Notes under the pieces: model-generated
What the model was told of the DNA's origin: nothing
Database searches by the model: none
Seen by the model: only the letters and a program-made list of their open reading frames with translations
Position numbers and translations under genes: made by a program
Shown: positions 1,753-63,826 of the stretch, one piece after another
Layout: the number at the start of each line of letters is the position of its first letter
How positions within the stretch are numbered: position 1 is the stretch's first letter
Source: Minisyncoccota bacterium
GTDB lineage: Bacteria > Patescibacteriota > Microgenomatia > UBA1400 > PJMF01
Direction of reading: 5' to 3'
DNA: 64,000 bases
Assembly: GCA_018657765.1 (NCBI GenBank)
Contig: JABHWM010000020.1
Location: 18,786-82,785 of the forward strand

Positions 1753-4459
1753 GAGTTGGAGTTGGAGTTGAACTAGGTTCTGGAGTAGGGGAAGGTGGTA
1801 TATCAGTAGGCTCTGGATCTTTCCAATCAGCCCCACCAGCACCTATCTTGATAGTATTACTCTTAGATTCTTTACCATCTCTAGAAAAAGCTTTGGCATA
1901 AATTTCATGCTTGCCTGTTGAGAAATTAATGTTTCCTTTATAGCTTCTATCATTAATAGTCTCTTTCTTTTCACCATCAACAAAAATCTCTATTTTATCT
2001 ATCCCAGCATCACTACCAGCCTCTATATTCACTTCAATATCATTCTCTCCATAGCTTTTTTCATTCTCTGGTTTTGAGACATGAACATAAACTTCACTAG
2101 CATCTCCACAATACTCTGTTGGTATCTTAAAACGAGAATCATCCTGTCCATTAATCCAGCTCTGGATTGATTCTTGCCATCTATTCTGACCATCCTGACT
2201 GAAAGGATCACTTTCTTTCAAGATAATAAACTCTCTATCAGAATAATCATTAGCGCTTATCTTAGCTTCTGTAGCCAATTTACCTTCATCACCCTTACAC
2301 ATCTTCAATTTTGAATGAATAGGATCTGGTAAAGAGGGGACCGTTCCCTTCAAAAAGTAATCTGATCTACTAGGAAAATCATCATGTTTGGGATATCCAG
2401 AAAGACTATCTACTTCTATCTGTTCAACATCTTCAGGTATCTCCCAAGCTGGAGCGCCATAACCATCATCAAGAGCTGCAAAAATAATTCTGCGCCAGAT
2501 AGGGGAGGCACCAGTAATACCAGAAGCCACCTTGGTCATAGGACTATTATCATTATTTCCTACCCAAGTCCCGACCATTATTTCTTGACTCCAACCAATA
2601 GTCCAGTTATCTCGTTGATCGTTTGTAGTACCAGTTTTTACAGCGATTGGTCTACCTGTATTCAAAAGAGAATTAGCTCCAAAAGCCAGTAACCTAGCAT
2701 TATTATCTGACAAGATATCATTAATCAAGAATGATTCTCCAGTAGTCATCACTCGTTGTCCTTCAACAGCTTTATGTTCAAATAGAACTCTACCATCTCT
2801 GTCTTCTACTTTCAAAATAGCAACTGGATTAACCCTAAGACCTGTATTTGCAAAAGAACTATATGCCGTCACAGTATCCAAAAGATGAACTTCTGCACCA
2901 CCCAAAGTTACAGCTAGACCAAATCTTTTCATGTTGTCATCAGTTGGTTCCAAAGTTACAAAACCCATGTCATAAGCTATCTGTAAAAAATCTTTTACTC
3001 CTACAATAGCGACTCCTTTAACAGCCGGAATATTCAAGGAACTACCAAGACTATTTCTCAAACTAACCGGACCACGAAACTCACCATCATAGTTTTTGGG
3101 TTTGTATTCATCAGCAGATTCATTTGGTCTAAATACCGTTTCTACATCAGAGATCATTGATGCTGGACCATAACCTCTCCTGAAAAGTCCTAGATAGGTA
3201 ACAGGCTTAATAGATGAACCTGGCTGCCTCAATCCATCTGCAGCCACATTGAATTGTCCATCAATATCTTTATCAAAAAAATCTTTACTACCTACCATAC
3301 TAAGAATCTCACCAGTCTGTGGATTCATTACAACTGCAGAACCATTAGTAATATTAAAACTTTCCACACCCTCTACTTCTTCGGTAACGATTGCTTGAGC
3401 TTCTTCATGTAGACCTAGATCAAGTGAAGTAGTAACTTTAAGACCACCTTTTTCTACTAGATCCTCACCAAACATTTCTTCTAATAAGTCACGAACATAA
3501 AACACAAAATGAGGAGCTTTGATATCTGTATCTGTAGAGTTGAATTCTAGGGAATCAAGAGAAGCTATTGCTTCTTCCATTTGGAGTTTTGTAATATTAC
3601 TATTTTTCTCCATTGCACGTAAAACACTCTCTGTTCGAATCCTCCAATATGGAGTTCCTTCATCATTTTTCTTACCTGCAAAAGGAGAATAGACACTAGG
3701 CCTTTGTGGCAATCCAGCCAAAAAAGCTGATTCCACCAAAGATAAATCTACTGTTTGTTTACTGAAATATAATTCTGCAGCTGTACCAACGCCCCAGGCA
3801 GTACCACCATAAGGAGCTTCATTGAGATACATTTCCAAAATTTGATCTTTTGTAAAAGTTCTTTCTATTTGAACAGATAGAACCAACTCCTTGAATTTAC
3901 GAGAGATAGTTCTCTCGTTTGTTAAAAGAGCATTTTTTACTAGTTGTTGTGTCAAAGTAGAACCACCGACAACTCTTCTTTTAAAAACCATGTTGTAAGG
4001 AATACGAACAACAGTGAGAAAATCAAATCCGCTGTGCTTATAAAAATCTTTATCTTCAATAGCAACGGTAGCTTGTTTTAAATACTCTGGAACTTGCTCT
4101 AAAGTAATAGGATTTCTTCGTTCTGTGTCATAAAGATCATAAAGAAGTAAGCCCTCACGATCAAAAAGCTTGGTACTAAAACCTTCTCTACGAATGACTT
4201 CACCAGGTTTAGGAAGATCTTTGGAGTACCAAGCAAACATTGCCAAAAAGCCAACTATACCCACTACAACTCCAATCATAGAAAAGATAGCAATTAGTCT
4301 CATTTTTTTGGCCTTCAAAAGATCTTGTTGAACTTTAGAAAGTCGTGATTTTTTCATTTTACCTCTGGACATACGGATAATATGAACACGAAGTTTTCTA
4401 GTAAGCTTTTTATAATAAGCTCTACCTTTATCTGCTATAGCTGTAAAATTTATCTCCAT
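1736..4459 (-). CDS. Class A penicillin-binding protein (PBP1A-type transglycosylase/transpeptidase) with C-terminal Ig-like module and Pro/Thr tail
   Basis: N-terminal TM anchor. GT51 motifs EDKDFYKHSGFD, GGSTLTQQLVKN and RKFKE. Transpeptidase motifs SSIK (SxxK) and KTGTT. Ends in PSPTPEPSSTPTPTPTDTP. Confidence 0.9.
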   Translation of the reverse strand: MEINFTAIADKGRAYYKKLTRKLRVHIIRMSRGKMKKSRLSKVQQDLLKAKKMRLIAIFSMIGVVVGIVGFLAMFAWYSKDLPKPGEVIRREGFSTKLFDREGLLLYDLYDTERRNPITLEQVPEYLKQATVAIEDKDFYKHSGFDFLTVVRIPYNMVFKRRVVGGSTLTQQLVKNALLTNERTISRKFKELVLSVQIERTFTKDQILEMYLNEAPYGGTAWGVGTAAELYFSKQTVDLSLVESAFLAGLPQRPSVYSPFAGKKNDEGTPYWRIRTESVLRAMEKNSNITKLQMEEAIASLDSLEFNSTDTDIKAPHFVFYVRDLLEEMFGEDLVEKGGLKVTTSLDLGLHEEAQAIVTEEVEGVESFNITNGSAVVMNPQTGEILSMVGSKDFFDKDIDGQFNVAADGLRQPGSSIKPVTYLGLFRRGYGPASMISDVETVFRPNESADEYKPKNYDGEFRGPVSLRNSLGSSLNIPAVKGVAIVGVKDFLQIAYDMGFVTLEPTDDNMKRFGLAVTLGGAEVHLLDTVTAYSSFANTGLRVNPVAILKVEDRDGRVLFEHKAVEGQRVMTTGESFLINDILSDNNARLLAFGANSLLNTGRPIAVKTGTTNDQRDNWTIGWSQEIMVGTWVGNNDNSPMTKVASGITGASPIWRRIIFAALDDGYGAPAWEIPEDVEQIEVDSLSGYPKHDDFPSRSDYFLKGTVPSLPDPIHSKLKMCKGDEGKLATEAKISANDYSDREFIILKESDPFSQDGQNRWQESIQSWINGQDDSRFKIPTEYCGDASEVYVHVSKPENEKSYGENDIEVNIEAGSDAGIDKIEIFVDGEKKETINDRSYKGNINFSTGKHEIYAKAFSRDGKESKSNTIKIGAGGADWKDPEPTDIPPSPTPEPSSTPTPTPTDTP

Positions 4460-58518: not shown

Positions 58519-59334
58519 ATGTTTAATTTTTTCAAAAAAACCCTTACTGAAGAACAGATGAAACAAATGGATAAAACCATCGAGAAATTCAAGAAAAATC
58601 CTCATCAATTCCGTTTTACAGTCATGTTCTTTATTTCTTCAATAATTTTTGGCTTATTATCGATTTTCCTCTTACAACAAAAATTTTCACTTCTCATGAA
58701 AGAAGGAAAACCAGAAATAAGAGAAATCGTAAAAGAAATATTCGTTACTCCTCCTCCTAAAACTTCTATCACCCCTTCACCAGAGGCCACCTCTGAAGCC
58801 GAAATAATAGAAGAAACTTCTTGGATTCTAGAAAAAAGTGAATCATGTAATGTTTTAATACCGATTTCTCCATACAAAGCTAGTTACGAAGATAATAATA
58901 CTATTACACGAAGCTGGAGCTCTTACTCAATGACTGCTGGGAATGATTTTCCAACTCCCTTCTTAGATATTTTCAATTATGTAACAATTAATATTTTTAA
59001 AAGCAATGAAGATACAAGCGAAAATCCTAGAGGGATGATTTCTATCTATTGTAATAACAATGTAGACAAAATTAGTGATAATGACTTAAAAAATAAGATT
59101 ATCTCTTCAGCCGAAGAGATTGGTCTTTCTATTACTGAAACTGAAGAAGTAGAAAAATGGGATAAAAAATCTACAAAACTTCTATTTTCTGGAGGAAAGT
59201 TTGAGGGGAAAATCTTTTATGCCTTCACAACAGATAAACATCTCTATCTAATTGGTTATGAAAATACTCACAACGACCAACCAGTAATTGATGATACATT
59301 GAGAAGTTTTAATAACCTTATCTTTCTTGATTAA
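58519..59334 (+). CDS. Hypothetical membrane-anchored protein
   Basis: One TM helix (FTVMFFISSIIFGLLSIFLL) and an external domain with no recognised motifs. Confidence 0.55.
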   Translation: MFNFFKKTLTEEQMKQMDKTIEKFKKNPHQFRFTVMFFISSIIFGLLSIFLLQQKFSLLMKEGKPEIREIVKEIFVTPPPKTSITPSPEATSEAEIIEETSWILEKSESCNVLIPISPYKASYEDNNTITRSWSSYSMTAGNDFPTPFLDIFNYVTINIFKSNEDTSENPRGMISIYCNNNVDKISDNDLKNKIISSAEEIGLSITETEEVEKWDKKSTKLLFSGGKFEGKIFYAFTTDKHLYLIGYENTHNDQPVIDDTLRSFNNLIFLD

Positions 59335-59382
59335 AACTTTTCTCTTGACTAATCTCCTATTTTCTTATAGGATACTAAGTAT

Positions 59383-59433
59383 ATGTTAAATATTGCTGTT
59401 ATTTCAGCTCATCACCATACCCTCCTCTGCTAA
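59383..59433 (+). CDS. Candidate His-rich leader peptide (16 aa, MLNIAVISAHHHTLLC)
   Basis: ATG is preceded by AGGA 10 nt upstream. Three consecutive His codons CAT CAC CAT lie at 59410-59418. The stop codon abuts the antiterminator strand. Confidence 0.55.
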   Translation: MLNIAVISAHHHTLLC

Positions 59434-59486
59434 AGTGTGGGATGTGATTGTATTGACATAAATTACCCGCACTTAGCGGGTTTTTT
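59411..59486 (+). promoter_or_regulatory. Candidate transcription attenuator (alternative 1:2, 2:3 and 3:4 helices) controlling hisS
   Basis: Hand pairing. 59411-59422 pairs with 59439-59448 (10 bp, 2 bulges). 59433-59441 pairs with 59466-59474 (9 bp, 1 G-U). 59465-59470 pairs with 59476-59481 and is followed by U6. Confidence 0.55.
59465..59486 (+). terminator. Intrinsic terminator inside the hisS leader
   Basis: ACCCGC-ACTTA-GCGGGT followed by TTTTT. Lies 127 nt upstream of the hisS ATG. Confidence 0.65.
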
Positions 59487-59612
59487 GATGGCTTAAAATA
59501 AAAAGCTATCCTAGAACCTGAAAAAACAGAGGATAAAGAAAAACCTGTAAATAAAAATTAATACAATCAAAGTACAATAAGATTAACGATAATAAGAAAG
59601 AAAAAATATAAA

Positions 59613-60899
59613 ATGAAAAAAAATAAACAACAAGGTGAATTGCAAAGCAAGAGAGGGTACCCTGGGGTATTACTACAACCACTCAAGGGATTCCGTGATT
59701 TTCTGCCTGCAGAAAAACAAGCACGTAACTTTGTGATGGATAAAATAACAGAGACTTTCGAGACTTTTGGTTTTCAACCACTCGAGACACCTACTCTAGA
59801 GTATGCTTCTCTTCTCCTGGGTAAATATGGTGATGAAGCAGATAAACTAGTCTATACATTCGAGGATCGAGGAAACAGAAAAATCGGCCTTAGATATGAT
59901 CAGACAGTTCCTAGTGCCAGAATATTAGCCCAATACCAGGATAAATTACCAAAATACTTCCGTCGTTATCAAATCCAGAATGTATTCCGGGCAGATAAAC
60001 CACAAAAAGGTCGCTATAGAGAATTTACTCAGTGTGACATTGATGTTTTTGGTAGCACTTCTCCCCTGGCAGATGCCGAGATCATGGCTTGTACTTACAA
60101 GGCTTTTCAGAATGTAGGGTTTAATAAAATAATCTTGAAATTTAATGACCGAGAAACCCTAATCAAAACCATAAAGCCTTTTGTTACAGAAACGGTGGAT
60201 GTTTTTTCTATTATTCAAAGCATTGATAAATTAGACAAAATGAAACCCGAAGATGTAGTAGCAGAACTAGTCAAAAAAGGCCTTGAAAAGGCTGATGCAG
60301 AGAAAGCTTTGACATCTATAAAAAATGCTGAAAAATCAGCTAATTTGAAAGAAATTGAACAAAATATGTATGATTTAGGAGTTCCTAAGGAAGCTGTAGA
60401 GTTTTCTCCTATATTAGCTCGTGGTTTGGACTACTACACTGGAGTTATTTTTGAAGTCATAATCCCAGAATATGGAGTTGGTTCATGTGGTGGAGGTGGT
60501 CGTTATGACAAACTTATCAATGATCTAGGTGGTCCAAACATTCCTGCTGTAGGTATTGCTTTTGGTTTCGATAGAATGGTTCAGGCTGCTACAGAACTGG
60601 ACATTATTCCTCAAGACCAAGGTGTGGAAATCTTGGTAGCAAATTTTGATGAGACAGTTCTACCTCAAACTCTTCAGGCAACAAAGAAACTACGAGAACA
60701 AGGAATCCGTACAGAACTCTATCCTGCCTTGGATAAACTAGGTAAACAGTTCAAGTATGCAAGTCAAAATAATATTCCTTATGTCTGTATAGTCGGTGAA
60801 GATGAAGCTAAAAACAATACTATTTCTATCAAAAACATGGCAACTGGAGAGCAAAAAACTCTTGCTTTGACAGAGATCATGAAGTATAGAGAGATTTAA
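59613..60899 (+). CDS. hisS: Histidine--tRNA ligase
   Basis: Class II motifs GFRDFLP, FRADKPQKGRYREFTQCDIDVFG and GGGGRYD, plus a C-terminal anticodon-binding domain. Confidence 0.9.
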   Translation: MKKNKQQGELQSKRGYPGVLLQPLKGFRDFLPAEKQARNFVMDKITETFETFGFQPLETPTLEYASLLLGKYGDEADKLVYTFEDRGNRKIGLRYDQTVPSARILAQYQDKLPKYFRRYQIQNVFRADKPQKGRYREFTQCDIDVFGSTSPLADAEIMACTYKAFQNVGFNKIILKFNDRETLIKTIKPFVTETVDVFSIIQSIDKLDKMKPEDVVAELVKKGLEKADAEKALTSIKNAEKSANLKEIEQNMYDLGVPKEAVEFSPILARGLDYYTGVIFEVIIPEYGVGSCGGGGRYDKLINDLGGPNIPAVGIAFGFDRMVQAATELDIIPQDQGVEILVANFDETVLPQTLQATKKLREQGIRTELYPALDKLGKQFKYASQNNIPYVCIVGEDEAKNNTISIKNMATGEQKTLALTEIMKYREI

Positions 60900-62638: not shown

Positions 62639-63826
62639 CTACTTCTTCTTAATAACCCTATACCGCACCAACTGCGGTAACAAAAACCCAACCATTACTA
62701 TTCCCAGTATCAAAGCAAACTCATTAGGTGAAGTCTTGTCTATTGCGTCCCCTATAAAATAGGATAAAAGAACAAATGGAAGTTCTGAGAGCAACGTCAT
62801 TGTAGAAAGAGCTGTAGCTCTGTTTTTGGAATCGATAAACTCATTAATAATCAGTGATTTTGAGTTCAAAAATGTTGTAGAGCTGACAATTCTCAAAAAA
62901 ATTAAAACCATTCCAAAAAATATTCCTACAAAGTAGGCTCCCAAAAATGAAGCTATAAGAACTAACGAAGCAAGAACAGCTAATTTACCTGCAGAAAGTT
63001 TCTTTCTAATCTGTGGATAAAAATGAGAAGAAAAAGCAGCTATCAAATAACCAGCCCCAAATAACATTCCTACCCCTTTACCCTCTAGGCCATACTCTAT
63101 AGCTTGTGAAATACCCAATATTTTTGAAGCAATAAAATAACCAGCCGTAATTGTAATCATAATAAGTGAAATAGATCTTCTTTTCTGCGTTGAAAAAAGC
63201 TCATGAAATCCTTTCAAGGTTTGCTTTATGTAGCTCGAAAACGAAAAGACTTCTGAATCAATTTTGGGCTCTTCTATGAAAAATGTAATAATCAAAGTGA
63301 TTGCCGTAAAAAAAGTAGTTACGATATATGGGAGAGTTGGGGATATATCAAAAAGAAACCCACCAACAACAGATGAAACAAATAAAGCTAGCCAACTAAG
63401 TACACCATTACGAGATACTACATCAGTAAATCTATCTTTTTGCCCTGATTCTTTTAATGTATCGTATTGCAAAGATTCCAAAGAACCTGACCAAAGTGCC
63501 TGAGAGATACCCTGAATAAATCTAGCAACAAGAAACACCCAAAAAGTCTTTCCCAGAATCATCATTACAAATGAAGTTATTCCAAAAAGTCTTGAGATAA
63601 TCAAAGTTTTTTTTCTTCCAATGATATCTGAAATAGCTCCTGTTGGAATCTCAAAAATACTTCCAGCAATAGTAGAAGCTGCTCCAATAATAGCTACTTC
63701 TCTAAAATCCAAATACTGCAAAAAATAAAACATCCAGATGGCAATTGGAAAATACAGATACCACTGAAACAATAAAATCCAACTTATAAATATATTTTTG
63801 TGTAACTTCTTTGACTGTTTAGACAT
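62639..63826 (-). CDS. MFS-family transporter
   Basis: 395 aa with about 12 TM helices and the loop 2-3 motif GAISDIIGRKKTL (MFS signature). Confidence 0.8.
   Translation of the reverse strand: MSKQSKKLHKNIFISWILLFQWYLYFPIAIWMFYFLQYLDFREVAIIGAASTIAGSIFEIPTGAISDIIGRKKTLIISRLFGITSFVMMILGKTFWVFLVARFIQGISQALWSGSLESLQYDTLKESGQKDRFTDVVSRNGVLSWLALFVSSVVGGFLFDISPTLPYIVTTFFTAITLIITFFIEEPKIDSEVFSFSSYIKQTLKGFHELFSTQKRRSISLIMITITAGYFIASKILGISQAIEYGLEGKGVGMLFGAGYLIAAFSSHFYPQIRKKLSAGKLAVLASLVLIASFLGAYFVGIFFGMVLIFLRIVSSTTFLNSKSLIINEFIDSKNRATALSTMTLLSELPFVLLSYFIGDAIDKTSPNEFALILGIVMVGFLLPQLVRYRVIKKK

Follow-up and report, generated by a model that had tools for sequence, protein, structure and literature searches.

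Leader-peptide transcription attenuation of aminoacyl-tRNA synthetase (aaRS) genes has precedents in the pheST attenuator of gamma-proteobacteria and in the classical trpS and leuS attenuators predicted in Streptomyces (PMC1262725). For histidine, attenuators with 3-5 His codons precede the his operons of Firmicutes (PMC9413887), and a His leader has been predicted before a Bacillus hisS paralogue (hisS*) and before hisZ (Naville & Gautheret 2010, PMC2965389). Leaderless leader ORFs (open reading frames) are represented as well: leaderless leader peptides have been predicted in Deinococcus deserti upstream of genes for aaRSs and for amino-acid biosynthesis, cysS for example, in a set of 14 leaders that may include hisS (PMC4007540), and leaderless poly-Cys small ORF (sORF) attenuators occur in mycobacteria (bioRxiv 10.1101/834739), the mycobacterial Cys elements having no obvious intrinsic terminator (PMC1262725). 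A leader of comparable design is found in a 64-kb stretch of contig JABHWM010000020.1 from a Minisyncoccota bacterium (the window, meaning this whole stretch), where it occupies the 278-nt spacer (59335-59612) upstream of hisS, the gene encoding histidyl-tRNA synthetase (HisRS). This element is very probably a ribosome-mediated (leader-peptide) transcription attenuator that tunes hisS expression to the supply of charged tRNA-His.

The spacer, all features of which lie on the plus strand, contains a short leader ORF (MLNIAVISAHHHTLLC, 59383 to 59433) of 16 codons plus UAA, reading ATG TTA AAT ATT GCT GTT ATT TCA GCT CAT CAC CAT ACC CTC CTC TGC TAA. The three His codons CAU CAC CAU at 59410 to 59418 are the proposed sensor and ribosome stall site, a role supported by codon-level conservation and enrichment in the relatives described below. 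Around and downstream of these codons lie four RNA segments. Segment 1 (59410 to 59422), made up of the His and Thr codons, pairs with 59435-59448 of segment 2 to form the 1:2 helix, a putative anti-antiterminator or pause hairpin. Segment 2 (59429 to 59448) begins 2 nt before the leader stop codon and serves two partners, its 59429-59441 portion belonging to the antiterminator and the stretch from 59435 or 59439 to 59448 pairing with segment 1. Segment 3 (59465 to 59477), the antiterminator target, comprises the terminator 5′ arm ACCCGC, the loop ACUUA and the two bases with which the 3′ arm begins, and segment 4 (59476 to 59487) consists of GCGGGU and the U-run UUUUUU. Pairing of segment 4 with 59465-59470 creates an intrinsic terminator of six pairs, five of them G-C, with a loop of five, which was also found by a consensus terminator scan.

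A first-pass annotation, made from the sequence by eye, had proposed this ORF with its three His codons together with three hand-drawn helices; the ORF was confirmed base by base and every pair in the 1:2, 2:3 and 3:4 helices is a standard one. The 1:2 helix (10 bp, two bulges) has a folding energy of -7.6 kcal/mol, or -9.9 in a shifted register pairing 59410-59420 with 59435-59444, while the 2:3 helix as drawn (9 bp) has -12.0 kcal/mol and the 3:4 terminator helix (6 bp, followed by UUUUUU) has -10.4 kcal/mol. The annotated antiterminator exists and excludes the terminator as proposed, but at 9 bp it had been drawn too short; the extended duplex joins GCUAA-A-GUGUGGG (59429-59441) to CCCGCACUUAGC (59466-59477) in 12 bp with one bulged A, at -16.0 kcal/mol. 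It takes up the terminator 5′ arm, the loop and the first two bases of the 3′ arm, and forms the core of the unconstrained minimum free energy (MFE) structure. The antiterminator is therefore not weaker than the terminator (-16.0 vs. -10.4), and the two complete states, -33.5 with the antiterminator and -29.5 with the 1:2 helix plus terminator, are close in energy and mutually exclusive. Folding is also stronger than in dinucleotide shuffles, with z = -3.8 for a 111-nt region and z = -4.6 for the whole spacer, and the antiterminator duplex in particular scores -17.8 against -7.3 ± 2.3 kcal/mol in shuffles, none of 1000 being as good. Upstream complementarity reaches -17.9 kcal/mol at the hisS terminator, compared to -5 to -8 at the four other terminator-like sites that a scan of the window found.

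Assembled into a mechanism, these parts would follow the classical logic of attenuation. A sigma-70-type promoter would start transcription a few bases before the leader AUG, and a 70S ribosome would load on the leaderless mRNA and translate the 16-codon leader with the polymerase still on the ~105-nt leader. When His-tRNA-His is plentiful, the ribosome would reach the UAA codon (59431-59433) and cover segment 2, whereupon segments 3 and 4 would pair, the terminator would form and transcription would end 126 nt before hisS. When His-tRNA-His is scarce, the ribosome would stall at CAU-CAC-CAU, occupying segment 1 and leaving GUGUGGG and its flanks free to form the 12 bp with the terminator 5′ arm and loop; with the antiterminator in place no terminator would form, and the polymerase would continue into hisS. 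With no ribosome on the leader, the 1:2 helix is expected to form first during transcription, which would favour termination. The spacing in the window agrees with this scheme, the core of segment 2 starting 17 nt past the last His codon and 2 nt past the stop codon. A ribosome-masking model, in which the ribosomal footprint is masked in the leader and the Boltzmann probability of the complete terminator is calculated at equilibrium, gives a terminator probability of ~0 to 0.02 with the A site on His codon 2 or 3, 0.78 with the ribosome on the stop codon and 0.28 without a ribosome. The contrast between a ribosome stalled on His codons and one at the stop codon, as first proposed, thus works in silico for the window, which combines a cognate-codon ORF, an intrinsic terminator, exclusive alternative helices and a stall/stop geometry, the features by which an attenuator is recognized.

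The same module recurs in related genomes. Loci were collected from GTDB species genomes and JGI metagenomes by seeding with HisS, and are therefore unbiased as to the presence of a leader; the comparison set consists of 86 usable hisS loci from related Patescibacteria (Pacebacteria-like) with HisS identities of 46-78%. When the 600 nt upstream of hisS were scanned in 81 regions for ATG-initiated ORFs of ≤45 codons containing ≥3 consecutive His codons, such ORFs were identified in 14 forward regions and in none of the 81 reverse regions, with a mean of 0.26 (maximum 3) in shuffles. Runs of other amino acids are not enriched, the next commonest being Leu with 8 forward and 10 reverse. These 14 core loci share a near-consensus promoter, an ORF of 12-25 codons in which the His run is followed by a few further codons, and a G-rich segment that coincides with or shortly precedes the leader stop codon, and all 14 carry a canonical GC hairpin and U-run 22-68 nt past that stop. 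Relaxed scans and inspection of long spacers added HH, HxH and HHxH variants, some of them located farther upstream at the head of small operons that end in hisS. Across the family, leader ORFs span 12-27 codons with 2-4 His codons near the 3′ end, and an intrinsic terminator is present in each of the 21 characterised leaders. The His-run ORF and the alternative helices expected in relatives by the first-pass annotation are accordingly present, in 14 loci with at least three consecutive His codons and in the variants.

A covariance model (CM) built from 21 instances identifies 29 elements (E<0.002) in 28 of the 86 sources, 8 of the elements being outside the training set. All 29 are on the hisS strand, upstream of hisS or tRNA-His, and the sole significant match in the 64-kb window is to 59404-59492. 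One match upstream of hisS, at 2321-2420 of locus L043 (E ~1e-3), contains the ORF MTTATQINTTLHTSLPNGGG with one His codon and six Thr codons, and is either a degenerate His leader or a sensor of something else.

Both competing helices show covariation. In a sequence-based alignment of 21 leaders, 83% of the cells in the terminator stem are paired, and terminator covariation is 0.336 vs. 0.188 in shuffles (0/500 as high), clearly above slid controls. Terminator arms vary by lineage (ACCCGC, GATCCCC, GCTCCC, AACCCTCT, CCGCCA, ACCAGCC and others), and the sequence that follows the His codons keeps pace with them, being complementary in every locus to the terminator arm of that locus. Tested against 1000 shuffles, the antiterminator duplex is better at p<0.02 in 13 of the 14 core loci; the exception, L018, has a 10-bp helix just beyond the target region that was scanned. 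Cognate duplexes average -18.4 kcal/mol compared to -11.8 kcal/mol for non-cognate locus pairs (Mann-Whitney p=2e-10). On a plain MAFFT alignment, 62% of cells in the antiterminator columns are paired and controls slid by +1 or +2 are equally good; the register of the helix shifts between lineages, and this column test, in which no single consensus register for the antiterminator stands out, was replaced by the cognate/non-cognate duplex test and by a CM-based alignment. In the latter (29 sequences), 6 of the 7 core antiterminator pairs have changed on both sides, and antiterminator covariation is 0.302 vs. 0.172 in shuffles (0/500) with slid partners at ≤0.18, a result that leans towards the antiterminator model. 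The His codons themselves take part in the 1:2 helix, where CAUCAC pairs with GUGAUG-like motifs; this helix is weaker but recurrent across the 21 leaders, with p<0.05 in 7 of 21 and a Fisher combined value of 1e-8. Other terminators in the same DNA have an upstream complementarity of -11.0, vs. -15.8 for the leaders (p=5e-4), and the strongest of these "background" cases are further His leaders.

The recurrence and covariation bear directly on whether the window arrangement might be a coincidence, in which the hairpin would only terminate the upstream gene while the His ORF and the complementary segments would be accidental. That gene, encoding a 271-aa protein without a Pfam match (58519-59334), is indeed the 5′ neighbour of the spacer, is co-directional with hisS and ends 131 nt before the hairpin. 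However, the whole module recurs in L001, L002 and L024 with a divergent tRNA-Ala upstream, on the other strand, such that the terminator cannot belong to an upstream gene, and this reading of the hairpin was rejected. A conserved promoter between the upstream gene and the leader ORF, the 14 of 81 His-run ORFs against 0.26 expected, and the covariation of both terminator and antiterminator likewise make a chance assembly extremely improbable.

The leader promoter consists of the -35 hexamer TTGACT (59345 to 59350) and, 17 nt after it, the -10 hexamer TAGGAT (TAnnnT; 59368 to 59373), which ends 9 nt before the leader ATG. This candidate had been noted on first inspection and was recovered by the promoter scan as the sole plus-strand promoter-like site in the spacer. 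No promoter-like site was detected by the consensus scan between the terminator and the hisS ATG (59488-59612), the scan requiring a 9-of-12 match that weaker promoters would escape. A TTGAC(A/T/C/G) hexamer with equal spacing is present in most of 25 tabulated leaders, and in 24 of them the -10 box ends 5-11 nt (mode 8) upstream of the leader ATG. Shine-Dalgarno-like motifs are absent from the 25, save for an AGGA within the -10 hexamer in the window and L001 only. The position of the -10 box just before the ATG and the absence of a Shine-Dalgarno-like motif suggest that the leader mRNA is leaderless, with a predicted transcript start ~1-3 nt before the AUG, and the predicted near-leaderless promoter is a conserved feature of the family rather than the caveat as which it was first listed.

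The leader ORF always opens with ATG where the promoter predicts the 5′ end, and conservation of the leader peptide is limited to the His codons and the length of the ORF, with the N-terminal sequence free to vary. Within the aligned His triplets, the C and A are invariant or nearly so and the third base is T or C; such wobble-only variation is a codon-level signature suggesting that the leader is read as codons. These observations also address a very unlikely alternative, in which the same switch is set by a non-ribosomal sensor, either uncharged tRNA-His on the CAY codons in the manner of a minimal T-box or an RNA-binding protein. The His codons are complementary to the GUG anticodon of tRNA-His, and segment 2 often contains UGG(G/C), resembling the T-box bulge for the tRNA 3′ end (GUGUGGG in the window). 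However, the UGG motifs lie within a helix and not in a bulge, and L003 and L029 lack them. The AUG at the predicted 5′ end, the in-frame His codons, their wobble-only variation and the stop codon at or just after segment 2 are as expected for translation, and not for tRNA docking or for an RNA bound by a protein. In agreement with the lack of T-box hallmarks noted at the outset, the T-box model (RF00230) has no match in the spacer even at E≤10 and none at gathering score in 20 leader-negative related hisS loci.

Several observations weigh against ribosome-mediated attenuation. Approximately two thirds of the related hisS loci are without the element, most of them with short spacers or with hisS inside operons. 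In the masking model, the same direction of switching is obtained in roughly half of the other 13 loci modelled and no clear switch in 4-6 of them; in L002, L025, L053 and L078 the terminator is predicted to prevail at equilibrium irrespective of where the ribosome is placed, meaning that co-transcriptional kinetics must be assumed. Since the MFE structure in the window is the antiterminator, an untranslated leader would read through at equilibrium, unlike the trp paradigm. The essential nature of hisS, with the scan finding no second promoter in the spacer, would require substantial basal read-through. Finally, the -10 box of the window, TAGGAT, is weak, and the AGGA within it lies 10 nt upstream of the ATG, which makes a leadered mRNA produced by read-through from the upstream gene possible in the window and L001. 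Among the loci without a leader, the close relative L004 (HisS 61% identical) has instead, at 3840-3960 upstream of hisS, an inverted-repeat element that contains CTGCAGG and is present in two copies.

Of particular interest in the relatives is the nature of the genes that follow the leader. ARAGORN identified a tRNA-His(GUG) gene between the leader terminator and hisS in L053 (2377-2451), L056 (1284-1358) and L095 (2371-2446). The tRNA begins ~5-11 nt past the terminator in L056 and L095, leaving no room for a separate promoter, so that in these two loci tRNA-His is transcribed by read-through, and its gene is itself apparently controlled by the attenuator. To our knowledge, no tRNA gene has been described under leader-peptide attenuation that senses its own charging. 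The leader is located directly before tRNA-His in L061 (tRNA at 1107-1181) and L072 (tRNA at 215-291), and L094 has a leader with a terminator ~110 nt before a sequence near 505 that begins like tRNA-His, an assignment made by sequence likeness and not by ARAGORN. Paired His leaders within one transcription unit are found in L061 (957-1001 and 1223-1306) and L072 (94-138 and ~323-431); in this tandem arrangement one leader precedes tRNA-His and the second follows it, before an M20 peptidase or racemase homologue and then hisS. The His leader at 119-196 of L054 is listed among the tandem-leader cases.

Proteins with putative roles in histidine supply are also encoded downstream of these leaders. 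L054 encodes a histidine-racemase homologue (260-1129) whose best PDB match is 9cr1_A, "Histidine racemase" (4e-20); an earlier motif-based guess that this protein is DapF-like was dropped after a Pfam search gave no match and the PDB sequence search identified the racemase homology. A homologous domain of ~235 aa is fused to the HisRS N-terminus in L028 (1793-3733), with 33% identity to the L054 protein, and the racemase homologue that follows tRNA-His in L072 (509-1903) is apparently fused to a C-terminal GNAT domain. The presence of this homologue downstream of His leaders or fused to HisRS suggests that D-His salvage is coupled to tRNA charging. L061 carries an M20 peptidase downstream of its His leader and L072 an M15 dipeptidase-like gene. 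An aromatic/histidine ammonia-lyase family gene is located between the His leader and hisS in L005 (2003-3544) and L019 (184-1737), matching Pfam Lyase_aromatic at 1e-165 with TSG replacing the usual ASG at the MIO-forming site; induction of a histidine-degrading enzyme under histidine limitation would be paradoxical. In L075 (1289-1900), a hisG-like gene (Pfam HisG) is preceded by the codons CAT CAT CAC, an antiterminator and a terminator (CM E=3e-8). There is no obvious in-frame ATG, GTG or TTG start for the His triplets, which come immediately after the stop codon that ends the upstream ORF, and the hisG frame is split by a frameshift, which may reflect an assembly error or a pseudogene. 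L091 contains a short ORF at 1333-1380, MKTSVKSVASHYWTS, with His, Tyr and Trp in a row, accompanied by a promoter and terminator and located before a class I/II aminotransferase gene (HisC-like), and may represent a mixed aromatic/His leader. Such His-related downstream genes are the company expected of a histidine-specific control element.

This linkage is relevant to the very unlikely possibility that the leader is an independent small gene, producing a His micropeptide or a ~105-nt small RNA (sRNA), that merely neighbours hisS, with the hisS promoter located in the 126-nt A-rich stretch after the terminator. The unit does possess its own strong promoter and terminator, the 126 nt from the U-run to hisS leave room for a weak promoter below the 9-of-12 scan, and attenuator RNAs and leader peptides are known to act in trans elsewhere, as shown for rnTrpL/peTrpL (PMC6614838, PMC7298713). 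However, a gene acting on its own does not account for peptide conservation that is confined to the His codons, ORF length and helices, and would leave a conserved, co-varying antiterminator without purpose. The element also stays before hisS, tRNA-His or other His genes while its upstream neighbours change, the short distance to tRNA-His in L056 and L095 needs read-through, and no promoter-like site was found by the scan in 59488-59612.

We consider it somewhat better than an even chance that Patescibacteria (candidate phyla radiation, CPR) possess a histidine-starvation regulon that spans the lineage and is governed by leaderless His-leader attenuators, one that in the relatives examined controls HisRS, tRNA-His and histidine-scavenging enzymes; the latter would comprise the histidine-racemase homologue (once fused to HisRS), the M20 peptidase and the M15 dipeptidase.

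The hisS leader is a member neither of the Rfam His_leader family nor of the T-box family. An Rfam search of the whole window at gathering score returned only two tRNAs, and His_leader (RF00514) has no match in 59250-59700 even at E≤10. Weak matches at E≤10 to isrK (21 bits vs. a cutoff of 50) and Trp_leader (16 vs. 41) are driven by the terminator and were rejected as non-members. The enterobacterial his operon leader (RF00514) shares the logic and the amino acid of the hisS leader, yet differs in its run of seven His codons, in an ORF led by a Shine-Dalgarno sequence and in acting on a biosynthetic operon. The Firmicutes hisS T-box serves the same purpose, with hisS induced when tRNA-His is uncharged, but senses the tRNA directly through RNA-RNA contacts.

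Closer parallels exist in design. As in E. coli pheST, with its pheM leader peptide, and in Streptomyces trpS and leuS, the hisS leader combines a cognate-codon ORF with alternative hairpins and an aaRS target, and those attenuators also provide homeostatic feedback on charging of the cognate tRNA, as proposed here. They differ in amino acid and phylum and have no sequence relationship to the hisS leader, whose mRNA is apparently leaderless and whose controlled unit, in relatives, includes the cognate tRNA gene. The leaders of Bacillus hisS* and hisZ and of Firmicute his operons likewise have a short ORF with a His run, a terminator and an antiterminator, and one has a HisRS-family target. Those leaders act in His prototrophs, on biosynthetic operons or on an additional paralogue, whereas the target here is a HisRS with an anticodon-binding domain in a CPR genome, the comparison being one of design and not of sequence. 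With the Deinococcus and mycobacterial leaders, the hisS leader would share an mRNA that begins at or near the AUG and the lack of a Shine-Dalgarno sequence, and the targets of those leaders include aaRS genes; transcription start sites are mapped in those organisms, while here the start is predicted from promoter geometry. A full-text literature search found nothing combining the candidate phyla radiation with transcription attenuation, and no report of a leader peptide or attenuator in Patescibacteria was among the top 15 matches. A hisS leader of this kind is apparently undescribed in the phylum, in keeping with the first-pass annotation, but attenuation of aaRS genes has the precedents given above, and the mechanism itself is classical, following trp, his and pheST logic. 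What is new is the phylum, a coherent family of ~30 instances with a consistent, apparently leaderless layout, the HisRS target in such a genome and the extension, in relatives, to the gene of the cognate tRNA and to genes apparently serving histidine salvage.

The regulated gene, hisS (59613 to 60899, plus strand), encodes a HisRS of 428 aa with Pfam matches to tRNA-synt_His (5e-38) and HGTP_anticodon (2e-17). The closest HisS is that of Candidatus Pacebacteria CG2_30_36_39, with 78% identity, of the phylum now named Minisyncoccota by NCBI (Patescibacteria/CPR). No second hisS was seen within the 64-kb window, and no further aaRS among the eight largest window ORFs scanned. The hisS leader is the only module of promoter, short ORF and terminator of this kind in the whole 64 kb, and a search across the window for other leader-type attenuators, with runs of any amino acid, found none. 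Two other matches in the window were treated as chance, one at 7122-7072 (minus strand) inside a RecG-like ORF and one at 62776-62805 inside the opposite-strand ORF 62639-63826. The 126 nt from the U-run to the hisS ATG (59488-59612) are very A-rich and contain no Shine-Dalgarno-like motif before hisS; the L001 counterpart of this stretch looks unrelated by eye. The spacer fold also contains a small predicted hairpin just 3′ of the terminator, at ~59485-59508. L084 (6060-6170) carries two identical copies of a terminator-like hairpin, CCAGGTACCATACGGTACCTGGCTGTTTTTT, arranged in tandem at a distance of ~45 nt and 3′ of a gene.

Gene regulation in Patescibacteria is almost unstudied; members of this group are uncultured and have very small genomes. 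CPR bacteria are usually regarded as poor in regulators, with amino-acid biosynthesis that is minimal or absent, although L075 does carry hisG. The mechanism proposed for the hisS leader is a textbook one, and hence extends a known principle to new territory without adding a new principle. The element is compact and portable (~140 nt) and could be tested in E. coli or in vitro, while the covariance model allows mapping of the regulon across metagenomes, and the element suggests candidate functions for unannotated neighbouring genes. If the attenuator operates as proposed, CPR bacteria would monitor tRNA charging through the translating ribosome, with transcription coupled to leaderless translation in uncultured, reduced bacteria. 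A shortage of histidine would be answered by more HisRS and, in relatives, also by tRNA-His and apparent histidine-salvage enzymes, and the regulon, if true, would be direct evidence for coupled transcription-translation control in CPR.

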